Notes: a model not told the origin generated them from the letters alone. A DNA stretch of 64,000 nt from an uncultured Candidatus Saccharibacteria bacterium (GCA_964350645.1 CAYGJY010000002.1:340936-404935); one strand, 5' to 3'; shown: positions 32,230-46,745, counted from the first letter of the stretch. Numbers and translations are program-made.

Positions 32230-34932
32230 ATGCCTAATTTTCACAACTTTACATCCCGGGCAAAAGAAGCAATTCGGAAAGCCCATGAACTAGCCATCGA
32301 ACGTGGTCAGAACCATGTCAGCCCAGTACATTTACTCACTGCCTTGGCAATGCAAGATGAAAGTACAGTGATCTCAGTACTCGATCGTCTTGATATCGAC
32401 ATTATTGTTTTTACTGACTTACTGATTGAGGCACTCGAAGGTCCAGAAATGAATTCAACTGTCTCGCAGTCGTATCAGCTGTACCTAACACCTGAGCTCG
32501 CTAAGGCGCTTGAGCACTCAGGCCGTGTGGCTGAGCAACTCGGTGACTCCTATGTTGGAGTGGAGCACCTTTTCTTAGCTGCGCTCGAATACCCAGGACC
32601 AGCTGTCGAAGTGTTGCAACGGTCTAACATAGACAAGACTCAAGTAGCCTCAACCCTGCAAGAGATCCGTGATAACAACATTACTGACGCAACGTCACCA
32701 AAGAAGTATCGAGCACTAGCTAAGTACACTAGAAACCTCACTAAGTTGGCGCAAGATAATAAACTTGACCCAGTAATCGGGCGCGACGTGGAGGTGCAGC
32801 GTGTAATTCAGATTCTTTCTCGACGCACGAAGAACAATCCCGTCTTGATTGGAGAAGCTGGTGTGGGGAAGACAGCGATTGCTGAAGGATTAGCTCAACA
32901 GATCGTCCAAGGACAGGTTCCGGAGTCAGTCAAAGAGAAAGAGATCTTATCGCTCGACCTGGGACTCTTGGTAGCGGGGACAAAGTTTCGCGGTGAGTTT
33001 GAAGAGCGTTTGAAGGCAGTTATGAAAGAGATCGAACAGTCAGAAGGTTCCATTATTCTGTTTATTGATGAGCTTCACACAATTGTGGGTGCTGGTCAGG
33101 CTGAAGGTTCAATGGACGCCAGTAATATGCTGAAGCCTGCTCTGGCGCGCGGTGAAATGCGGGTAATTGGTGCGACAACACTCAAGGAATACCAAAAGCA
33201 CATCGAACGTGATCCAGCACTGACACGTCGCTTCCAGCCAGTATTTGTGAATGAACCAAGTCAGGAAGACGCGGTTGCAATTTTGCGTGGGATTGCTGAA
33301 AAGTACGAACTCTTCCACGGCGTGCGGATTACTGATGATGCGATTGTTTCAGCAGTTGATTTGTCGATGCGTTATATCACTGATCGATTCTTACCGGATA
33401 AGGCAGTGGATTTGATTGATGAGGCTGCATCAGCTCTACGTATTTCGCTTGAGAACAAGCCTGAAGAATTGGTGGTGTCTGACCGACAGATCCGTCGTCT
33501 CGAAATTGAAAAAGAAGCGTTGAAGAAGGAGTTGGAAACTAGTGATCAAAAGAAACGACTACAAGATCGTTTAAAAGAAATTGATGCTGAGATTGGTGAG
33601 CTTAAAGAAAAAACCAAAGCTCTTGAAACGAAGTGGAATAATGAAAAAGAAGCGCTCGGGGAGATCAGCCGTTTGAAAAAAGAACTCGAAGAACTCCGAC
33701 TCGAAGCAGAATCAGCCGAAGCGATCGCTGACTTAACCCGAGCCGCAGAAATCCGTTACGACACAATTCCAGCTGTGCAGAAAGAGCTCGAACAAAAAAC
33801 CAAACGTTTGAAGAAACTCCAGCGCAGCCGACGACTGCTCAAAGAAGAAATTACAGAAGAAGATATTGCCCTCGTTGTCTCACGGTGGACTGGTATTCCA
33901 GTGATGCGGATGCTTGAAGAAGAAGCGGAAAAGCTATCACGGATGGAGGAAGAGCTGCATACTCGCGTAGTTGGGCAAGATCAGGCAGTCAAATTGGTAG
34001 CAGATGCAGTCAAGCGCTCACGCGCTGGTATTGCCGACCCAAACCGACCAATTGGTTCGTTTCTCTTCCTCGGACCAACGGGTGTTGGAAAGACTGAACT
34101 TTCAAAAGCTTTGGCTGAGTTTATGTTTGATGATCCGGATGCACTCTTGCGGATTGATATGTCTGAGTTTATGGAGAAACATTCAGTCTCAAAGATCATT
34201 GGGTCTCCACCAGGTTACGTTGGCCACGAAGAGGGCGGTACGATTACTGAACGGGTCCGCCGTCGACCGTATTCAGTTATCTTACTCGACGAGATTGAAA
34301 AAGCTCATCCTGAAGTCTTCAATATCCTTCTCCAAGTGCTTGATTCAGGTCATCTTACCGACGCGAAAGGTCGCAAGATCAACTTTAAGAATACGATCAT
34401 TATCATGACCTCAAACATTGGTGCCGAACATATCGATCGGATGTCGAGTTTTGGTTTCAGTATCGACAAGGATGAAGAGGCTGAGTATGGTCAGGCTAAA
34501 GACAAGGTAATGGAAAGTCTCAAGTCGTTCTTCCGTCCGGAATTCTTGAACCGTCTCGATGAAACAATTATCTTCGATATTCTCTCACCAGAGACTATCG
34601 CTGAGATTGTGAAGATGCAAGTTGGTGAAGTGCAGAAGCGCTTAGCGCAGAAGGAGATTGATCTTTCGGTCAATAAGGAAGTCTTAGCGTATCTCACTAA
34701 GGAAGGGTATGATCCAAAGTTTGGGGCTCGTCCTTTGAAGCGTGTTATCCAAAGTAAAATCCTCACCCCAGTGGCTAACATGATGGTGGGTGAAGGGATG
34801 CTGCAAGGTGGGACAGTCAAGGTGGCAATGAAGAAGGGTGAACTCGACTTCGATATTAAAAAGAAAGCTCGCAGACGCTCTACCGCTGCCAAAAAGACCG
34901 TTGCAAAGAAACGTGAAGCAGTAGCAGCTTAG
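32230..34932 (+). CDS. clpB: ATP-dependent chaperone ClpB
   Basis: Clp N-domain repeats. AAA-1 [15 protein letters not shown]. Long coiled-coil M-domain. AAA-2 [15 protein letters not shown] plus sensor-2 GARPLKR. Lys/Arg-rich C-terminal tail. Confidence 0.95.
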
Positions 34933-35146: not shown

Positions 35147-35305
35147 CTATCGTCGGTGCTTTGTAGCATCGGCGAGAGTGAAGGTACGAGCTTTACCCCT
35201 GTAAGGAGGAACACGTTCACCTTTGGTGAGCGTGATTTCATATTTCGTACCATTCACACGATACTGGCCACTCTTTGGCGCAGTACCACCAGTCTTAGTA
35301 GACAT
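35147..35305 (-). CDS. candidate small ORF (52 aa, MSTKTGGTAPKSGQYRVNGTKYEITLTKGERVPPYRGKARTFTLADATKHRR)
   Basis: Found by manual translation (below the track cutoff). Basic and beta-rich. No SD sequence. Confidence 0.2.
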   Translation of the reverse strand: MSTKTGGTAPKSGQYRVNGTKYEITLTKGERVPPYRGKARTFTLADATKHRR

Positions 35306-35479: not shown

Positions 35480-35623
35480 ATGTCGATTTCAAAAGATGCA
35501 GCCGATGAGTTCAAGCGAATTCATAAAGAGAAGTACGATGCAGAGCTTGCTGGTGCAGGAAAACTCATGTCATCGCGGTATCTCCATGACTGGACTTGCT
35601 GTGATATGCGCGTAAAATCTTAA
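35480..35623 (+). CDS. candidate 47-aa upstream ORF translationally coupled to the 1265-aa gene (MSISKDAADEFKRIHKEKYDAELAGAGKLMSSRYLHDWTCCDMRVKS)
   Basis: ATG to TAA ending 4 nt before the ATG of 35627. Below the track cutoff. Confidence 0.25.
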   Translation: MSISKDAADEFKRIHKEKYDAELAGAGKLMSSRYLHDWTCCDMRVKS

Positions 35624-35626
35624 CTA

Positions 35627-38600
35627 ATGGTCAAATGGATTACAGCAACTGAAATTACAGCTTGGGTTAAGCGTGATAGTCGGCGTGCTCAGGAAAAATT
35701 GCCAGAATTGGTCCGCAAGCTGATACAAGCAACCGCATCATCTATAGATAGAATAAACTTTCCGTGCGACGGTAGTGTTACTTCCGGTGGTTGGGATGGG
35801 CATTTGGAAACGAAAGCAAAGACACCCTTTTTCCCAAGCGGACTATCAAAATGGGAAATGGGAGTTGGGGAGTCGTGCGGAAATAAGGCAGACAGTGATT
35901 ATAAGAGCCGGACAGCAGATCCTTTGGATGCTGTACCAGCTGATACTGTCTATGTCCAGGTTTCACCTCAGCCGTGGATAGATCGTGATAATTGGGTGAA
36001 AGCAAAAAAGACTGAGGACATATGGAAAGACGTTCGTGCAATTGGTGCCGACGACCTTGAGTTGTGGCTAGAATCAGCACCTGCAGTAGCATTATGGCTA
36101 GCAAAGGAGATGAAGAAGATCGGCTCTGCAATAAGGGACATAGAAGCTTGGTGGGAATATTGGTCAACCATGACAAATCCCTTTCTCAGTGTCGATCTGG
36201 TTATTTCTGGAAGACAAGACGAGGTCAATGAAATTCATGGGTGGTATAGGAACGGTCCTAATATTTTTGAGATGCAAGGCGATGATGCGCAAGAACCGTT
36301 CGCATTTTTATATTCAGCTCTATCAAAGTTACCGGAAGAAGAATGTCAGAGAGCTTTTTCAAGGTGTGTAGTTGTGGAAACAATTGAGCAGTTACGAGAT
36401 TGCTACGAGTCATTTGTTCATCCTCTAATTATAGCTGTCCCAGCAGAATGCATTGAAGAGGCACATATGGCAGTAAACAAAGGCCATCACGTATTTGTGA
36501 GCGCAAACGCAATGGATCGCTACCGTTATGTGCATAAACTTTCAAGAGCAAAGCGTGAACCAATGCAAGAAGCTTTAGAAAAGTTGGGATTGTCAGAGGC
36601 AGACGCCACTCGTTGTATTCGTAATACAGGGAGAAGCATTCCAGTCATTCGGCGCCAGAGGTTTAAAGCTAGTAACAAGACGCCAGAATGGGCTAAACAA
36701 GAAAATTCAAAGTTTTTACTTCCGGCGTTGTTGGCAGGAGCGTGGACTGATGGACGAGAGGGTGACAAAGAGATGATGGAGGCATTGTCTGGCATGCCTT
36801 ACAGTAAGTTTTCAAAGAGCATAAAGCCATTAACTAAGGTTGAAGACTCTCCCTTAATCAAAGTTGGGCATGTATGGATGTTAAAGTCACCTTTGGATGC
36901 TTGGTTTCTTGCTGCACAGTATTTAGATCAAGACGATTTTACCAATTTTAGACGAGGATTAAGTGCAGTATTAACTGAAACTGATCCAAAGTATGATCTT
37001 CCTTCTAGTGAACGTTGGATGGCAGGTGTAAAAGGTAAAACTCCAAAATGTTCAAGATGGGTTAGGAGGGGGTTGGTAGAGTCGTTAGTTTTGCTCTCAG
37101 TGTATGGTGACAAAATCTCTGAAGAAATTAATTCACCAGAAGATTTTGCGTATTCGGTAGTAAAGGATCTTTTAGATGCGGCTAATACATGGGAGGCATG
37201 GGCTACGCTAAAAGATGTAATGCCACTGCTTGCAGAAGCTTCACCTGATGCATTTATAGATGTTCTTGATGAGAAGATTGATTCTGAAAAAGAAATTTTT
37301 GTTGAGTTGATGAAGGATGATGAAGATCGTTTTGGCTTTGGTGATTGTCGTCACTCAGGCTTGTTATGGGCTTTGGAAAGTATTGCGTGGGACCCAGAAT
37401 ACGTCACCGCCGCGTCAATGGCGCTTTTAAAGTTGGCTCAAATTGATCCTGGTGGAAGATGGTCTAACAGACCACTTGCTAGTCTTACAGACATTTTATT
37501 ACCAGCATTGCCTCAGACTTACGCGAACGCAAAGCAGCGTGTTAAGGTTTACAAAAAGATTATTAAAGAAGACGCCGTGATTGCATGGCAGCTGGCAAGT
37601 AGTCACATGGGTGGTGGTACAGTTTCACCATCGCATTCTTTCCAATGGAGAGATATGGGTGGTGATAGAGGCGCGTTACAGCAAGTGTCGAGTGAGGATT
37701 ACACTGAGTATTTGAAGTCAATGTTTCCTATTTGGGCAGATTTAGTTTGTGTAAACAACTCTACGGTATCAAGTGGCATAGAGGATTTTATTCGGTTACC
37801 CGAAGAAATTAGAAAAAGTCTTGTAAAGAAACTTGACCAGTTAGATAAGAAATCTTTCTCAATTGAGGAAAGGAAGGTTATTTTGCAACACTTGAGACAC
37901 ACTTTAAATTGGATTCTCAATTATGATAAGGAAGAAAATTATAAAAAACACGTTCCGGCACTTAGGAGAGCCTATAATTTGTTAACGCCAGAGGATCCAT
38001 TGGATCGAATTGATTGGTTATTTCAAGACGGTTGGCCAGATTTACCAGAAGCAACAAAAAGACATGATCAACAGGAACGCCTTGAGGAACTTCGGATAGA
38101 GGCGGCGAAAATGCTGCTTGAAGAGGTGTCACTTGGTGCTATTGGAAAGTATGGCTCCGGATTGAATTATCAAGCAGCTTTTGGGTCAGCTTTTGCCAAG
38201 GCTGAAGGGAAAAAACATGATCCGGGTATTGTTAGTGAATTTTCAAAGTACGTAAAAGAAAGTCCATGGTTATTGGTTGGTTATGCGATGGGTTTGTTTG
38301 ATTCTGGTGGACAAAAGGCTGTTTTGGGTCAAATTGAGGTAGTTGAAGCAGGTAAGCTAAAATCACAAGAAAAAATCATTGCGTCACTCTTAAGAGGATT
38401 GCCTGAGCAAAGTGACACATGGTCCATTGTGGAATCTTACGGCGATCGAGTTGGTAAAGAATATTGGCTTTTGGCTTCTGGATATACAAGAAGAGATGAT
38501 CAGAAAAAACATGATGCAGAGTATGCGGTTAAAAAGCTTATTGATGTCGGTAGGCCTGGGGTCGCGGTTCGTATAGCTGGAGATTCACATGGTTCTTTAC

Positions 38601-39424
38601 CAAGTGCACTTCTAAAGCAGGTCCTGTTAGAACTTCTTAACTTAAGTGTTGAAGACAAGAATATGATTGATGGATCAATGTTGGAGTTTTATTTATCAAA
38701 TATATTTGACCAACTGTACAAAAATGACGATCTCACTTTAGAAGAGATTGGAGCTTTGGAGTGGCCATATGCACAAATTTTTGACCACCATCACAAAAGG
38801 ACTAAATCCCCAATGGCTTTGCATCAAAATCTACAAAGCAACCCAGGTTTTTTTGTAGAGCTTTTGTCGTACTTATATAAAAAGGATGATGGTTCAAATT
38901 CTAAGCCGGACAATCTATCAAAAAAACAAGCTGAAAATATTGCAAAGAACGCATACGAAGTTCTCCATACTTGGAGTCTGGTGCCGGGTGTAAGTAGTAG
39001 TGGAGAGGTAGATAAAGAGGTTCTGCGCGAATGGGTCATTACAGCTAGAAAAATGGCCAAAGAGCAAAGTTATTTAAAGGGCTGTGATCTTAAGTTGGCT
39101 GAGATTCTATCTAAAATGCCACAAGATTCAGATGGTGTGTGGCCTCATGTCGCACTGCGTGATCTGCTTGAAGAAGTAAAAAGCTCGATACTTGATAAGC
39201 ACATTCCATTTGCTATCTACAATAGCCGAGGAGTGCGTTCAAAAAGTTTGACGGATGGAGGAAGTGAAGAAAGAAGGTTGGCAGATAAATATATGGCCTG
39301 GTCGAAGGAGTTAAGTGATAACTGGCCGCGTACTTCTAGGGTTCTAAAAAACCTCTCCACTATGTTTAGTAGAGATGCAGAAAGAGAAGACATTGATTCC
39401 CAACTTCACGACTTAGAGTACTAG
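35627..39424 (+). CDS. large (1265 aa) predominantly alpha-helical protein of unknown function, cargo of integrative element
   Basis: Long uninterrupted ORF. No Walker A, HEPN, or nuclease motif recognisable by eye. Cys-containing N-terminal about 150 aa (…INFPCDGSVTSGGWDGHLE…GESCGNKADSDYKSR…). Confidence 0.7.
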   Translation: MVKWITATEITAWVKRDSRRAQEKLPELVRKLIQATASSIDRINFPCDGSVTSGGWDGHLETKAKTPFFPSGLSKWEMGVGESCGNKADSDYKSRTADPLDAVPADTVYVQVSPQPWIDRDNWVKAKKTEDIWKDVRAIGADDLELWLESAPAVALWLAKEMKKIGSAIRDIEAWWEYWSTMTNPFLSVDLVISGRQDEVNEIHGWYRNGPNIFEMQGDDAQEPFAFLYSALSKLPEEECQRAFSRCVVVETIEQLRDCYESFVHPLIIAVPAECIEEAHMAVNKGHHVFVSANAMDRYRYVHKLSRAKREPMQEALEKLGLSEADATRCIRNTGRSIPVIRRQRFKASNKTPEWAKQENSKFLLPALLAGAWTDGREGDKEMMEALSGMPYSKFSKSIKPLTKVEDSPLIKVGHVWMLKSPLDAWFLAAQYLDQDDFTNFRRGLSAVLTETDPKYDLPSSERWMAGVKGKTPKCSRWVRRGLVESLVLLSVYGDKISEEINSPEDFAYSVVKDLLDAANTWEAWATLKDVMPLLAEASPDAFIDVLDEKIDSEKEIFVELMKDDEDRFGFGDCRHSGLLWALESIAWDPEYVTAASMALLKLAQIDPGGRWSNRPLASLTDILLPALPQTYANAKQRVKVYKKIIKEDAVIAWQLASSHMGGGTVSPSHSFQWRDMGGDRGALQQVSSEDYTEYLKSMFPIWADLVCVNNSTVSSGIEDFIRLPEEIRKSLVKKLDQLDKKSFSIEERKVILQHLRHTLNWILNYDKEENYKKHVPALRRAYNLLTPEDPLDRIDWLFQDGWPDLPEATKRHDQQERLEELRIEAAKMLLEEVSLGAIGKYGSGLNYQAAFGSAFAKAEGKKHDPGIVSEFSKYVKESPWLLVGYAMGLFDSGGQKAVLGQIEVVEAGKLKSQEKIIASLLRGLPEQSDTWSIVESYGDRVGKEYWLLASGYTRRDDQKKHDAEYAVKKLIDVGRPGVAVRIAGDSHGSLPSALLKQVLLELLNLSVEDKNMIDGSMLEFYLSNIFDQLYKNDDLTLEEIGALEWPYAQIFDHHHKRTKSPMALHQNLQSNPGFFVELLSYLYKKDDGSNSKPDNLSKKQAENIAKNAYEVLHTWSLVPGVSSSGEVDKEVLREWVITARKMAKEQSYLKGCDLKLAEILSKMPQDSDGVWPHVALRDLLEEVKSSILDKHIPFAIYNSRGVRSKSLTDGGSEERRLADKYMAWSKELSDNWPRTSRVLKNLSTMFSRDAEREDIDSQLHDLEY

Positions 39425-40156: not shown

Positions 40157-40426
40157 ATGGCACGAGGAGGCAAAAGACCAGGCGCCGGTCGTAAAAAAGG
40201 ATATGCAGCAAAGACCGCCGAAGAGACACGGAAAGTTATTGCTGAACTTGTTTCAAAAGATATTACCCCAATCACCAAGGCTTTAATTAAAAAAGCTAAA
40301 CAGGGTGATGTTCGCGCCTCTAGTCTATTGTTTGACAGAGCTTTTGGTAAGCAAACAAATGAACCTAAAAATCAGACCTTTTCTTTTAATGTAGCTGAAA
40401 TGAGGGAGAGGTATAAGCCTGATTAA
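40157..40426 (+). CDS. small basic putative DNA-binding protein with AT-hook-like N-terminus (MARGGKRPGAGRKKG…)
   Basis: 89 aa. The G-R-P/K-rich N-terminus resembles an AT-hook or phage small DNA-binding protein. Confidence 0.45.
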   Translation: MARGGKRPGAGRKKGYAAKTAEETRKVIAELVSKDITPITKALIKKAKQGDVRASSLLFDRAFGKQTNEPKNQTFSFNVAEMRERYKPD

Positions 40427-41707: not shown

Positions 41708-41953
41708 ATGCTGTCGTATAAAGATGAAAATGTATATCAGACTTCTGATTTTGCAGAAGCTATCACTTTAAAATATTTTAGTCATCAAATTAAATTTGTT
41801 GACCGAAGTGAAAAACGGGCTGTTTTTCACTTTTTTCGCAAGGACAATACCCAAGAAGTTTTATCGGCATTTAGAGAGCGCGGTTTGAAGGTCGAGCCTT
41901 TTGCTTTTTACCAATGTGAACGTGAGGTTAAGTCTCGTCTTTATAACGGCTGA
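41708..41953 (+). CDS. hypothetical protein (element cargo)
   Basis: 81-aa ORF. Confidence 0.4.
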   Translation: MLSYKDENVYQTSDFAEAITLKYFSHQIKFVDRSEKRAVFHFFRKDNTQEVLSAFRERGLKVEPFAFYQCEREVKSRLYNG

Positions 41954-42942: not shown

Positions 42943-44718
42943 ATGTCGTTTCAAGATAGATACAAAGCAAATAAATATTTTCTCTACATACGAAGGTCCC
43001 AAGATGCTGAGGATCGTCAGATGGCGTCACTTGAGGATCAAGAATCTGAAATGCTTTCAATAGCAGATCGTCTTGGACTTGATATTGTCGATACAATTAA
43101 GGAGTCACAATCAGCAAAGAAGCCAGGACGACCGAAATTTAATGAGATGCTTGCTCGCATCCATTCCGGTGAAGCAGATGGAATTCTGTGCTGGAAGATT
43201 AATCGTCTGGCTCGTAATCCAGTTGATGGTGGACAAATCTCTTGGTTATTACAGCAGGAGATTATTAAGCATATACAGACGTATTCGAGAGACTACCAGC
43301 CGACTGACAATGTGATTATGATGGCGGTTGAGCTTGGAATGGCTAATCAGTTTGTTAATGACCTCAGTGTTGATGTAAAGCGTGGAATGAGAAATAAAGC
43401 AGAGCGTGGTTGGAATCCTCAAAGACTATTGCCATCAGGTTACAAACACAATAAGGGATATGAAAAAGGTGAAGCTGAGATACTGAGTACCGATAAGTTG
43501 CCGATAGTTAAAAAACTTTTTACCGATATGCTGACTGGATCGTATTCACCAGCAGATATTCAAAGACTTAGTCAGACATACGGTTTAATGAATAAGTTTG
43601 GAAGACCACTAGCACTTCAAACGATACATAATATGCTCAGTAGTGAGTTTTACTGTGGTTACTACTACTGGAAGGGTCCAGATGGCTCTGAAGTGCGCTA
43701 TAAAGGCAAGCATGAGGTTATTTTGAGTGAAGATGAGTTCAATCAAGTCCAACGCCTTCTAGGTAAAAAAGGAAGGCCTACAAGAGTCAATAAATTAGAC
43801 TTTGCTTTTAGAGGTCCTTTGAACTGCGGAGAGTGTGGATATGCAGTAACAGCCGAAGATAAGGTTAGGACTTTGTGTACTGGATGTCGTTGTAAATTCT
43901 CCTGCAAGACCCAAACAGCATGTCCTAAGTGTGGTTTAGATATTTCAGAAATGAAGAATCCAAAGATTTATCATAATGTGTATTATCACTGTACGAAAAA
44001 GCGTAAAGACATAAAGTGTACTCAGAGTGTTATTGATGAAAAAGTACTGAAGAAACAAGTGTACTCAAAGTTGGGTGAAGTTGAGATTGATAAAGATTTC
44101 TATAATTGGGCTGTTGCAGCTTTAAAACATACTCATGGTGATGAGATGGAGACTCAAAGTGACATTTTGAAACATCTCAATGATCGCTCTGTTTCTATTC
44201 AGGCACGTATTGATAAATTGGTACTAATGAGGGCTGATGGTGAGATTTCTAGTGACCAGCTTGCTCGAATGACTGCTGAAGCAGAAAAGGATCTTAAGGA
44301 GGTTGAGAAGGAGCAGAAGCGTTTGCATGCAAGAATGACGGAGTGGTCCAGTACCGCAGATAAATACCTCACTTTTGCAGATAGGGTACGAAGAAAGTTC
44401 AATAAAGCTTCAAATGAGGAAAAGCGAGAGATGCTAGTGATGTTAGGTTCGACACTCGAAATTACTGATAAAAAATTCAATGTTATAGTCGCGAATGAGC
44501 TTTTAGGTTTCAAAAATGTATCTGTGAAGATAGGCAAGAGATTAGGTAGGTTCGACAATCAAAAAGCCCTTGATATACAAGGACTTTCTGACCAAAAACG
44601 CATGGTTTTTGACGAACTGTGCGCCGGGTTGGATTCGAACCAACGTAGGATAAATCCGACAGGTTTACAGCCTGTTGCAATTGACCACTCTGCCACCGAC
44701 GCGTCTATAAAATTGTGA
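42943..44718 (+). CDS. large serine recombinase (resolvase-domain integrase with recombinase domain, zinc ribbon and coiled-coil)
   Basis: N-terminal resolvase catalytic domain (YIRRSQDAED…GILCWKINRLARN). Cys-rich zinc beta-ribbon (CGECGY…CTGCRCKFSC…CPKCG). C-terminal coiled-coil. The last about 33 codons are antisense to tRNA-Tyr. Confidence 0.8.
   Translation: MSFQDRYKANKYFLYIRRSQDAEDRQMASLEDQESEMLSIADRLGLDIVDTIKESQSAKKPGRPKFNEMLARIHSGEADGILCWKINRLARNPVDGGQISWLLQQEIIKHIQTYSRDYQPTDNVIMMAVELGMANQFVNDLSVDVKRGMRNKAERGWNPQRLLPSGYKHNKGYEKGEAEILSTDKLPIVKKLFTDMLTGSYSPADIQRLSQTYGLMNKFGRPLALQTIHNMLSSEFYCGYYYWKGPDGSEVRYKGKHEVILSEDEFNQVQRLLGKKGRPTRVNKLDFAFRGPLNCGECGYAVTAEDKVRTLCTGCRCKFSCKTQTACPKCGLDISEMKNPKIYHNVYYHCTKKRKDIKCTQSVIDEKVLKKQVYSKLGEVEIDKDFYNWAVAALKHTHGDEMETQSDILKHLNDRSVSIQARIDKLVLMRADGEISSDQLARMTAEAEKDLKEVEKEQKRLHARMTEWSSTADKYLTFADRVRRKFNKASNEEKREMLVMLGSTLEITDKKFNVIVANELLGFKNVSVKIGKRLGRFDNQKALDIQGLSDQKRMVFDELCAGLDSNQRRINPTGLQPVAIDHSATDASIKL
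44620..44702 (-). tRNA. tRNA-Tyr (anticodon GTA), type II
   Basis: Minus-strand GCGTCGG-TG-GCAGAGTGGTCAATTGC-A-ACAGG-CTGTAAA-CCTGT-[CGGATTTATCCTACG]-GTTGGTTCGAATCCAAC-CCGGCGC-A. Entirely inside the 3' end of the recombinase ORF on the opposite strand. Confidence 0.8.
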
Positions 44719-44830
44719 TAGTACAGGTGACCGGTACGTTAGTATCGGCCACCTGTACGGTGCTATAAACTACCATATCTTTTACAATCCGAAAAGTACG
44801 TCTGCCTGTGCTACTATTTTGGTATTACAT

Positions 44831-45835
44831 ATGAAAGCTTTTTTACTGGGATTGGTCTGTTTGACGCTGTGTAGTTTTGTTGGGCCTGAATTAGCGCAGG
44901 CTCAATTGGTGGCTGAGCCATGTACGCCAGGTATTGATGATTGCCCTAGTACGAACCGTGAAGCTGCTCGGTATGGTACTTGCGAGTTTGTCGAAACGAT
45001 TCAGAACGTTTTTAACTTTGTCATCCAGATTTCTTCAATTCTAGTGGTTTTTATGCTCGCCTTCTATGGACTTTGGTTGGTGGTGTCTGGAGGTAATACA
45101 ACAGTCCGAGATAAGTTAAAAGAGTACCTTGTGAATGTCGTAGTCGGTCTACTCCTGATTATAGCTGCATATGCGATTGTAAACACTATTATCACAATCT
45201 TGGTTGCTGATGAAAAAGTTAAAACTAGCTGGGGTCAAATTGAGTGTATTTATCCAACTGCAGCGGTAGAAATTGAATTATATAGAGGCAGACCAACAGC
45301 GGTACCGGGAGTAACAGAAGGGGCTCTTTCTTCGGCAGCAGTCGAAGCTGGTGTTGTGGGAGTAGAACCATACCGGGAAGCAATTTGTGCTCGAGCTGCT
45401 GCTCGAGGTATCGGCTCTGAGTGTACTAAGATATTGGCACTTATGTCGGTTGAGTCCGCGGGACGACCATCGGTTGAAAGTCCGGCGGGAGCGGTTGGTT
45501 TAATGCAAATCATGCCAGCAACAGCCAAGACTTTGGATCCAGCTTTGTCTGGATTATCAGATACCGAAATTAAAAACCGCCTGAAAGATCCGAACTACAA
45601 CCTTGACTTAGGGATAAAATTTTATGCCCAGTTGAAAGAAGAGTTTGGTGAAGATCGCTTGGTGTGGGCGGCATACAACGGTGGACGAGGAGCTAATGGT
45701 GATAGTCGAGATTGTCCAGGTCTTCGCCGTTGGGAGTGTGAGTGGGATAATCCGGCCAAGACTATTCCCAATACTGGTTATAAAGAAACCCGCAACTATG
45801 TACCGAACATTATGAGGGCGCTCGAGAGGTTATAA
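44831..45835 (+). CDS. T4SS-pilin-like N-terminal module fused to lytic transglycosylase (SLT, VirB1-like) domain
   Basis: N-terminus: signal peptide, Cys pair (CTPGIDDCPS), two-helix pilin-like module (…FYGLWLVVSGGNTTVRDKLKEYLVNVVVGLLLIIAAYAIV…). C-terminus: …LMSVESAGRP…GAVGLMQIMP…AAYNGG (SLT catalytic Glu, GLMQ, AYNGG). ATG at 44831 (the track start 44819 is a TTG). Confidence 0.65.
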   Translation: MKAFLLGLVCLTLCSFVGPELAQAQLVAEPCTPGIDDCPSTNREAARYGTCEFVETIQNVFNFVIQISSILVVFMLAFYGLWLVVSGGNTTVRDKLKEYLVNVVVGLLLIIAAYAIVNTIITILVADEKVKTSWGQIECIYPTAAVEIELYRGRPTAVPGVTEGALSSAAVEAGVVGVEPYREAICARAAARGIGSECTKILALMSVESAGRPSVESPAGAVGLMQIMPATAKTLDPALSGLSDTEIKNRLKDPNYNLDLGIKFYAQLKEEFGEDRLVWAAYNGGRGANGDSRDCPGLRRWECEWDNPAKTIPNTGYKETRNYVPNIMRALERL

Positions 45836-45842
45836 TATCTGT

Positions 45843-46745
45843 ATGAATATGAGTACGTTATTTCGAGGTTTGCTAGTCGTGTTGATTACCACAGTGTTTG
45901 TTACTCCGTCACTCGTGTGGGGAGCTGAAGGGTTGGTTACCTGCGATGGCGTAGCGTCTAAAGGGGTTGAGTGTAATTTCTGTACCTTGGCACAAATGGT
46001 TGAGAAGGTGATTGACTTCATTGTGATAATCCTAGTGCTGATATCGGTGATTATGTTGGCTGTTACGGGTATTCAGATGGCTTATACAGCGGCCGGCAAC
46101 GGTAACGCTCTTGAGGTTCTCAAAGAGCGCATGACTAATATTGTGATTGGATTTTTCCTAATTTTAGCGGCTTGGACATTGGTGGATACGCTAGTAAAAG
46201 TATTGGTGGCAAATACTAGCGATAATGAAGTGGTACTTAGCTGGCGTACATTTGGTATGAGTGCAAGTGACTTGTGTGGCAAAACATTAAAGCCGGTAGA
46301 AGAAGTATTGTACTCAGCTGATTATGAAGCTTCTCTGACACCAGAAGCAGCAGCTGCTGCAGCTGAGGTTTATCCTGCAGGAGTATCGATTGTTCCGGAT
46401 TTAGAGAGTTTGGCGAGTTTACGTGAGGCAGGAGTTGTCGTGGCAGATTGGCATGGTATTGATGGGCCCGGCCGCACAGATAAAGCCCATCCTTCAGTGG
46501 TGAGCGCTGCAGTTAGGATGAATGAGGCGGCGATTGCTGAGTTTGGTAAACCAATATTTCAGATCACGGCCGCCACGACTGATGGAGTAGGGCATAGTGC
46601 AAATAGTCAACATTATAAGGGAACAGCTATTGATTTAGATCCAATCAACGGAGCGACTACAGCTCAGGTAAAGGCTTTGGCTAAGAGTGCTGGTTGTACA
46701 TTTATCCTAGACCATGGTTCTCACGTTCATTGTGATTTTAGGTAG
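45843..46745 (+). CDS. T4SS-pilin-like N-terminal module fused to LAS/M15-type zinc peptidase-like domain (putative peptidoglycan peptidase)
   Basis: N-terminus: signal peptide, Cys pair (CDG…CNFC), two-helix module (…MAYTAAGNGNALEVLKERMTNIVIGFFLILAAWTLV…). C-terminus: …GVGHSANSQHYKGTAIDLD…DHGSHVHCDF (H-x6-D … H-x-H, the LAS metallopeptidase pattern). Confidence 0.6.
   Translation: MNMSTLFRGLLVVLITTVFVTPSLVWGAEGLVTCDGVASKGVECNFCTLAQMVEKVIDFIVIILVLISVIMLAVTGIQMAYTAAGNGNALEVLKERMTNIVIGFFLILAAWTLVDTLVKVLVANTSDNEVVLSWRTFGMSASDLCGKTLKPVEEVLYSADYEASLTPEAAAAAAEVYPAGVSIVPDLESLASLREAGVVVADWHGIDGPGRTDKAHPSVVSAAVRMNEAAIAEFGKPIFQITAATTDGVGHSANSQHYKGTAIDLDPINGATTAQVKALAKSAGCTFILDHGSHVHCDFR

Follow-up and report, generated by a model that had tools for sequence, protein, structure and literature searches.

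The window analysed here is a stretch of 64,000 nucleotides (nt) from an uncultured Candidatus Saccharibacteria bacterium (GCA_964350645.1, CAYGJY010000002.1:340936-404935). It contains an element of ~9.7 kb, which has a GC content of 0.36-0.42 versus ~0.46 in its flanks. At the left end of this low-GC stretch, just downstream of clpB (32230..34932), lies a gene for a protein of 1265 amino acids (aa). A preliminary description of the DNA had presented this protein as an orphan without recognisable motifs, tightly coupled to an upstream open reading frame (ORF) of 47 aa. The overall span and the lengths given there for the two ORFs, and the sequence quoted for the smaller one, are correct. On balance, we consider it probable that the large protein is a single-chain Avs-like pattern-recognition sensor-nuclease, which has lost its NTPase chemistry and is carried as cargo of a serine-recombinase element. 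The two ORFs and the regions recognised in the large protein are the following:

35480..35623, + strand: 47-aa ORF, judged to be non-conserved and not a partner of the large gene; probably located in the leader or promoter region.
35627..39424, + strand: gene for the 1265-aa protein, full length and intact, with all family-invariant residues present.
35627..36121, + strand: restriction-endonuclease-like domain (aa 1-165, core residues ~40-140), from the AlphaFold2 model and conserved residues.
35795-35797 (D57), 35855-35857 (E77), and 35885-35887 (K87), + strand: candidate catalytic residues.
36194..36526, + strand: degenerate AAA+/STAND-like nucleotide-binding domain (NBD; aa 190-300), from AlphaFold2 and Foldseek.
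36278-36298, + strand: loop at the Walker A position, GDDAQEP (aa 218-224).
36539..36886, + strand: helical lid (aa 305-350, with conserved G-R-S-I-P-V-L-R-R) and winged-helix domain (aa 355-420), from AlphaFold2 and conservation.
36686..39385, + strand: winged helix and ARM/HEAT-like solenoid, the presumed sensor (aa ~354-1253), from AlphaFold2 and BLASTP.

AlphaFold2 models were calculated on 118-sequence alignments and reached predicted local distance difference test (pLDDT) scores of 93.4 for residues 1-620 and 91.1 for residues 601-1265. The earlier expectation of a mostly alpha-helical protein holds for residues 601-1265, which are all-helical, but not for the first ~450 aa, which are alpha/beta. 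At the N-terminus, the order of the modelled elements (helix; strands 42-44, 58-62, and 72-78; helix 84-97; strand 107-112) fits the alpha-beta-beta-beta-alpha-beta order of the PD-(D/E)xK core. D57 is located just before strand 2, E77 within strand 3, and K87 within the following helix. These three residues and A88 are invariant in both branches of the protein family described below, with D57 being kept in 387 and E77 in 388 of 389 sequences. Local fold matches in BFVD, which were assigned to the N-terminal domain by their length, were to endodeoxyribonuclease I (probability 0.91) and a restriction endonuclease (probability 0.94), both with weak E-values. A PD-(D/E)xK-like domain, and with it a putative nuclease, is therefore probably present in a region where no such motif had been recognised by eye. 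Of the cysteines to which attention had been drawn, C47 and C84 do occur in this region but neither is conserved across the family; at position 21, where the family has its only nearly invariant Cys, the window protein has Ala.

The modelled NBD contains a strand (213-217), a loop, and a helix (223-232). Lid and winged helix are formed by helices 310-345, 358-370, and 378-404, a strand (372-374), and a hairpin (410-419). The best Foldseek matches of residues 1-620 in the PDB were the Avs5 filament (9nc9, E 1.5e-6) and Avs4 (8dgf, E 3.3e-6), each with a probability of 1.00, followed by the STAND-TPR (tetratricopeptide repeat) protein 6mfv, Apaf-1, and CED-4, and then by RFC and ORC. Fold matches in BFVD were to clamp loaders and a 'Novel STAND NTPase 3' protein. 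The structural search, which had been suggested as a check, returned STAND/Avs proteins at the top. The impression that the protein has no recognisable motif was mistaken.

The nucleotide-binding signatures themselves are gone. The Walker A position reads Q-[GA]-[DE]-x-x-[DE]-E in each of 391 family sequences, with Lys in none of them and E223 kept in 385. The absence of a Walker A motif, noticed in the window protein by eye, was thereby confirmed for all 391 sequences. A Walker B motif, hhhhD[DE], is absent from the same set, which shows P-L-I-I-[VA] followed by non-acidic residues. Judged by the predicted fold, the protein possesses the NBD, helical domain, and winged-helix domain of the AAA+/STAND fold followed by a repeat sensor. 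Judged by motifs, it fails as a canonical STAND NTPase on both Walker A and Walker B and is an Avs-like but not a canonical member of that group. Phosphate mimicry and cation binding are possible roles of this acidic loop, which is strictly conserved at the P-loop site. A stretch that satisfies the Walker A regular expression, AAAIYGKS, at aa 464-472 of many family members without a helix-turn-helix (HTH) domain was considered and rejected: it lies between two helices, is not conserved in the HTH-bearing branch, and is replaced in the window protein by GVKGKT, which does not match the Walker A pattern. The region concerned (family aa 464-476, window 37016-37054) is a helix-loop-helix, in which K471 is invariant in the HTH-less branch only.

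The C-terminal region (residues ~420-1265, ~840 aa) was modelled as an all-helical ARM/HEAT-like solenoid (pLDDT 91). A fold search with the C-terminal half yielded generic solenoids only, such as importin, CRM1, and beta-catenin. In BLASTP searches, the winged helix and solenoid together displayed 26% identity over 910-940 aa (242-288 bits) to proteins with other N-termini, namely, E. coli proteins of 930 and 1180 aa and a Shewanella OS117 protein of 1187 aa. The plasmid-encoded protein of S. baltica OS117 (locus L045, 4152-7715, 1187 aa) and that of E. coli EC96 (L049, 5546-9088, 1180 aa) begin with a different module of ~290 aa, which contains the motifs TGGxGxxFE, DDhIV, and QVKxS. A NACHT protein of Polaromonas (L046) and a 1500-aa TPR protein of Burkholderia cepacia (L047) have this module at their N-termini as well; a PDB profile search with it gave no identification. 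The 922-930-aa paralogue of E. coli and Buttiauxella is devoid of nuclease and NBD, and is encoded 5 nt downstream of a gene named gapS6a in RefSeq. In E. coli 19AR1724 (L048, 5675-8793), gapS6a (106 aa) and the gene for the 930-aa paralogue are located within a P2-like prophage, between ogr and the tail genes.

Based on these alignments, the winged helix plus solenoid is a portable module. Interchangeable N-terminal modules on a common sensor are a trait of STAND/Avs proteins, and shuffling of this kind is the pattern described in the Avs literature. Avs7, for example, occurs with at least 20 N-terminal effector domains and shares its sensor with Dsr1, which lacks the STAND NTPase; this pair is a precedent for a sensor module common to STAND and non-STAND defence proteins. 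GAPS6, composed of GapS6a and GapS6b, is an experimentally demonstrated anti-phage two-gene system, which protects E. coli against coliphages and in which GAPS6b was described as a protein with TPR and a PINc RNase domain (Mahata et al., bioRxiv 10.1101/2023.03.28.534373). Homology between the gapS6a-adjacent protein of 922-930 aa and the window protein extends over aa 364-1252 of the latter (26% identity, 242 bits). The former differs by the lack of the nuclease and NBD-like domains, and no PIN-like alpha/beta domain is seen in the model of residues 601-1265. The last ~22 residues of GapS6a in L048 resemble residues 5-26 of the large protein (54% identity). On the Buttiauxella plasmid pBTX_57 (L044, 2561-3955), a group II intron (ltrA) is located ~600 nt upstream of the gapS6a-like pair; group II introns were also found near homologues in R. 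tropici and Adhaeribacter.

An N-terminal extension is present in about one third of the top cluster representatives of the family (51 of 148). The extensions examined are unrelated DNA-binding domains (Xre HTH_3/31, HigA-like HTH, LexA_DNA_bind, and HTH_20/27), and one extended member carries a phage-integrase fragment. Extensions as large as a DNA-binding domain, the RefSeq labelling of HTH-bearing members as XRE-family regulators, and the Xre genes that flank 7 of 29 HTH-less loci would all suit a STAND-type signal-sensing regulator. In such a protein, the solenoid would bind a ligand, the module resembling a nucleotide-binding oligomerisation domain (NOD) would act as a switch controlling transcription, and the endonuclease-like domain would be a non-catalytic device for DNA binding or dimerisation. 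Regulators of this type, MalT and AfsR/SARP, combine a DNA-binding domain, a NOD, and a repeat sensor; an endonuclease-like domain is missing from them, and their Walker motifs are retained. Family members of the HTH-bearing branch have the same layout, but the window protein has an endonuclease-like domain and lacks HTH_3 or any other DNA-binding domain, with no HTH being either fused to it or encoded next to it. A DNA-binding domain is also absent from two thirds of the family. Moreover, D57, E77, and K87 are invariant in >99% of the sequences, which fits catalysis better than a relic, and the sensor module is shuffled with N-terminal modules of NACHT/TPR proteins. The mobile or defence-related contexts described below also disfavour a regulator, and we regard this explanation as quite unlikely. 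If the large protein is a sensor-nuclease, the Xre, LexA, or winged-HTH domain of about one third of its relatives probably serves in autoregulation of the gene or as a tether to DNA.

The description of the protein as an orphan was refuted by database searches. One search gave 281 relatives; the best 120 of these were nearly all full length (~1255-1280 aa), displayed 41-54% identity in alignments of 100% coverage, and originated from Margulisbacteria, Moranbacteria, Parcubacteria, and others. An exhaustive profile search retrieved 8,818 cluster representatives (50% identity) at E <=1e-3, with 4,641 of them at E <=1e-30. Carriers identified in a species-level genome scan were Gammaproteobacteria, Omnitrophota, Elusimicrobia, Saccharibacteria, Peribacteria, Gracilibacteria, Bdellovibrionales, Terriglobia, Aminicenantes, Saprospiraceae, and the cultured Flagellimonas sediminis. 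A second branch, with 26-31% identity and at least 1,108 clusters, is annotated as XRE-family regulator and includes proteins from cultured Rhizobium, Bradyrhizobium, Ralstonia, Cupriavidus, Shewanella, and Acidithiobacillus. The protein also matches phrog_18693, a group of unknown function (E 1.8e-172; residues 2-1263 against profile positions 1-1254 of 1258).

This is a very large, unnamed bacterial family. No model of it exists in Pfam, NCBIfam, or PADLOC, no structure has been solved, and it is known in RefSeq only as 'XRE family transcriptional regulator' or 'hypothetical protein'. Censuses of defence systems that use these libraries therefore miss it. A PDB search with the family profile gave no match, and when the N-terminal and NOD regions of 24 members were compared separately with Pfam, with E-values up to 10, the outcome was scattered noise only. 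One weak match to the family was found in INPHARED. The literature contained no paper naming phrog_18693 or the RefSeq accessions of family members.

The strong conservation of the family and the long ARM/HEAT-like solenoid that makes up most of the protein could also be expected of a non-enzymatic scaffold or a housekeeping protein of the host. Such a role is highly improbable given the patchy distribution, which crosses phyla at 40-45% identity, the decayed copies in loci L027, L029, and L036, the intron-split copy in L044, and the location on plasmids and, in the window, on a low-GC island at a tRNA gene with a recombinase. The right end of the latter comprises two features:

42943..44718, + strand: large serine recombinase (Pfam Resolvase, Recombinase, and Zn_ribbon_recom), which ends the low-GC element.
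44619-44702, - strand: tRNA-Tyr, overlapped for ~100 nt by the 3' end of the serine recombinase ORF.

Since the recombinase ORF runs into tRNA-Tyr, the element abuts the 3' end of this gene. An Rfam scan of the window revealed tRNAs only. The sole candidate pair of direct att repeats (35002-35022/44538-44558, 76% identical) was at chance level and was rejected; serine integrases leave no long att repeats. A related serine recombinase was found within 10 kb of a homologue in 11 non-redundant loci and is the only recurrent neighbour among 31 loci. Next in frequency were Xre HTH genes, DUF5659, and the combination of a small-terminase-like HTH with an N6/N4 methyltransferase. The gene order large gene, DUF5659, serine recombinase is common to the window, a Bdellovibrionales locus, and one further locus. 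The DUF5659 protein of the element is encoded at 41708-41953 of the window, and DUF5659, the large gene, and the serine recombinase recur together in L017 and L024. The element also encodes a DUF5681 protein (40157-40426), which is weakly similar to small terminase subunits. No conserved partner gene, including any Avs8B-like neighbour, was detected in 29-31 loci.

Homologues were also found on conjugative and mobilisable plasmids. In an Aminicenantes chromosome (L003/L021, 7073-15567), a homologue and two HTH genes make up nearly all of an island between Mg_chelatase (comM-like) fragments of 80 and 506 aa, which indicates insertion into comM. Defence-related neighbours of annotated homologues were recorded in several cultured strains, namely, in Thalassospira (Abi, SIR2, two RES-Xre pairs, and AbiEii), R. 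tropici (DUF2357, reverse transcriptase with SLATT, and a Shedu fragment), Adhaeribacter (HTH with ImmA, a PDDEXK nuclease, and DUF4238), Acetobacter (a type I restriction-modification system), and Shewanella OS117 (Abi and superinfection exclusion protein B). The remaining annotated contexts were neutral.

Carriage on mobile elements could mean that the protein serves the element itself, as a weapon or maintenance device. Its nuclease would then respond to loss of the element, or to the proteins or DNA of plasmids and integrative elements that compete with it, in the manner of exclusion or addiction. The serine recombinase in 11 non-redundant loci, the occurrence of DUF5659 alongside in three phyla, the plasmid-borne homologues, and the copy in the comM-splitting island fit this idea, as does the lack of family copies in a scan of IMG/VR. 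On the other hand, there is no conserved antidote or partner gene, the tie to any single element type is loose, the closest characterised relatives (Avs8 and GAPS6) are anti-phage systems, and the sensor-only paralogue resides inside a prophage. We consider this possibility unlikely.

Among known defence systems, one of the closest to the proposed sensor-nuclease is Avs8. PADLOC was run on residues 1-640 of 24 diverse family members, of which 11 matched PD-Lambda-4_A and no other of 5,027 models; the matches were sub-threshold (E 0.0024 to ~0.1), and the related queries do not represent independent trials. The matches are collinear (aa 142-198 on profile positions 156-205; aa 572-640 on positions 589-657), and the profile has 1283 positions as compared to a family length of ~1265. 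PD-lambda-4A is another name for Avs8A (EcAvs8A, WP_000963924.1), a protein in which an Mrr nuclease is joined to a STAND NTPase and a repeat sensor. On binding HK97-fold major capsid proteins, it proceeds to degrade DNA, and it can do without its partner Avs8B. The family shares with Avs8 the order of an N-terminal PD-(D/E)xK domain (putative in the family, Mrr-type in Avs8), a STAND module, and a tandem-repeat sensor, as well as nearly the same length. In Avs8, the large protein suffices alone, and the Walker motifs of KpAvs8 from Klebsiella are degenerate too. The family differs from Avs8 in that sequence similarity is marginal, Walker A and B are missing in every member while EcAvs8A requires ATP for nuclease activity, an Avs8B-like neighbour is absent, and many members have an N-terminal DNA-binding domain. 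We consider distant homology to Avs8 likely.

Avs4 (8DGF) and Avs5 (9NC9), the best structural matches of residues 1-620, display the same tripartite organisation of effector, NOD, and repeat sensor; they have no detectable sequence similarity to the family, both bind ATP, and the effector of Avs5 is SIR2. Upx is a precedent for the combination of a large sensor and a PD-(D/E)xK nuclease in the absence of a working STAND NTPase. Its nuclease, however, is C-terminal and its sensor is beta-rich, and the window protein had no PADLOC match to Upx.

By analogy with Avs4 and Avs8/PD-lambda-4, the solenoid of the window protein would bind a conserved protein made by an invader, either a phage or another mobile element. 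Ligand binding would relieve autoinhibition, the NOD-like modules would oligomerise without ATP, and the clustered nuclease domains would cut DNA, so that the infection would be aborted. Structure prediction and comparison show how the domains are ordered, that the P-loop has been lost, that D/E/K are invariant, that the sensor is portable, and that mobile elements carry the gene. The preliminary guess that the gene is a cargo of the defence or immunity type, borne by an element with an integrase, is supported by the fold, with Avs4, Avs5, and Apaf-1 among the best matches, and further by module shuffling with NACHT/TPR proteins, the gapS6a-linked prophage gene, the weak PD-Lambda-4_A matches, and the defence neighbours.

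Several observations weigh against this interpretation. Position 79 is Gly, Thr, or Ser across the family (Gly in the window protein), so that the canonical Lys two residues after E77 is missing, and the N-terminal domain matched no Pfam nuclease family; the nuclease is accordingly something we infer from topology, conserved residues, and weak local fold matches. Foldseek TM-scores, including those for Avs4 and Avs5, were ~0.2, low as expected for multi-domain alignments. The 1265-aa protein had no match in Pfam, NCBIfam, PADLOC, or PDB sequences, and PD-Lambda-4_A, whose matches to other members were marginal, was not matched by the window protein. The solenoid is unusually conserved for a sensor. 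A census of 150 immediately flanking ORFs was headed by Xre HTH (7) and methyltransferase (4) genes and revealed no strong enrichment in defence genes, and the lack of viral copies in IMG/VR belongs here as well. Action without ATP is an extrapolation, as EcAvs8A needs ATP, and the mechanism as a whole is drawn for this family from prediction and comparison.

A broader proposal can be put forward tentatively and is, in our opinion, rather doubtful. According to it, a huge clade occurring across most bacterial phyla, including the candidate phyla radiation, would consist of STAND-derived immune receptors that do without any nucleotide binding. The acidic loop at the P-loop site may mimic a bound phosphate, and the receptors would oligomerise and fire their nuclease on ligand alone. 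Their portable sensor of ~900 aa would be shared with the gapS6a-linked prophage gene and with proteins carrying the NACHT-associated N-terminal module, and remotely with Avs8. Nucleotide binding is thought to be necessary for the oligomerisation of STAND/NLR proteins from bacteria to humans. If the proposal is true, a huge conserved family that keeps the fold and has an invariant acidic loop would mean that the nucleotide switch is dispensable or replaceable. It would also add a candidate immune system for small-genome bacteria, apparently of the candidate-phyla-radiation type. The overall Avs-like logic is familiar; the surprising part is the size of the family, its lack of annotation, and the lost NTPase motifs. 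The idea is directly testable because cultured carriers exist (Rhizobium, Cupriavidus metallidurans CH34, and Shewanella baltica), with paralogues in E. coli.

The 47-aa ORF has no role in the mechanism proposed above. Its TAA stop codon (35621-35623) is followed by CTA and then by the ATG of the 1265-aa gene, with which it shares one frame. It is thus immediately adjacent to the large gene, as had been stated, but the gap is 3 nt rather than 4. This spacing is one of the points in favour of a translationally coupled small partner, an antitoxin or a chaperone, of the large protein. Public assemblies that contain the same contigs also annotate the ORF as a gene, and small partners are known from related systems: gapS6a (106 aa) ends 5 nt before the E. 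coli 930-aa gene, and Avs8 has the accessory Avs8B, albeit a dispensable one. Comparative data, however, speak for a chance orphan. Among 5.8 billion protein clusters, the 47-aa sequence matched only itself; it had no tblastn match in the 40 other loci fetched and no match in NCBIfam, and is unrelated to GapS6a. ORFs ending just upstream of the homologues are unrelated to it and to one another, and upstream of the closest homologue (54% identity) a divergent gene ends at a distance of 98 nt. The absence of the small ORF from homologous loci had been named beforehand as an argument against a coupled partner, and by that standard the partner idea fails.

The arrangement itself is within chance expectation. 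A mechanically defined ORF of 30-120 aa ends within 12 nt upstream of 8 of the 39 window genes that encode 200 aa or more. When the upstream region was shuffled, 17.5% of the shuffles had a + strand ORF of 47 aa or more, and 5.9% had one of 30 aa or more whose end fell no further than 12 nt from the ATG. Tight or translational coupling is not supported, and the partner idea is already largely refuted; we assign it hardly any probability. A Shine-Dalgarno-like motif precedes only 7 of the 39 genes and, being rare in this genome, cannot decide the matter. A promoter-like site lies inside the 47-aa ORF (35591-35618), such sites being no more frequent than in shuffles, and scans for promoters and terminators performed no better than on shuffled sequences. 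A TAAAAT box is located 8 nt 5' of the ATG of the 1265-aa gene and may hint at leaderless or non-Shine-Dalgarno initiation.

Two further observations concern the surroundings. Between clpB and the large gene, a 52-aa ORF (35147-35305, - strand) is called as a gene in public assemblies; judging by eye, its product resembles a YjzC-type small protein. Beyond the recombinase, the genes at 44819-45835 and 45843-46745 encode T4SS_pilin fused to SLT or Peptidase_M15 cell-wall hydrolase, a type seen in candidate-phyla-radiation genomes.

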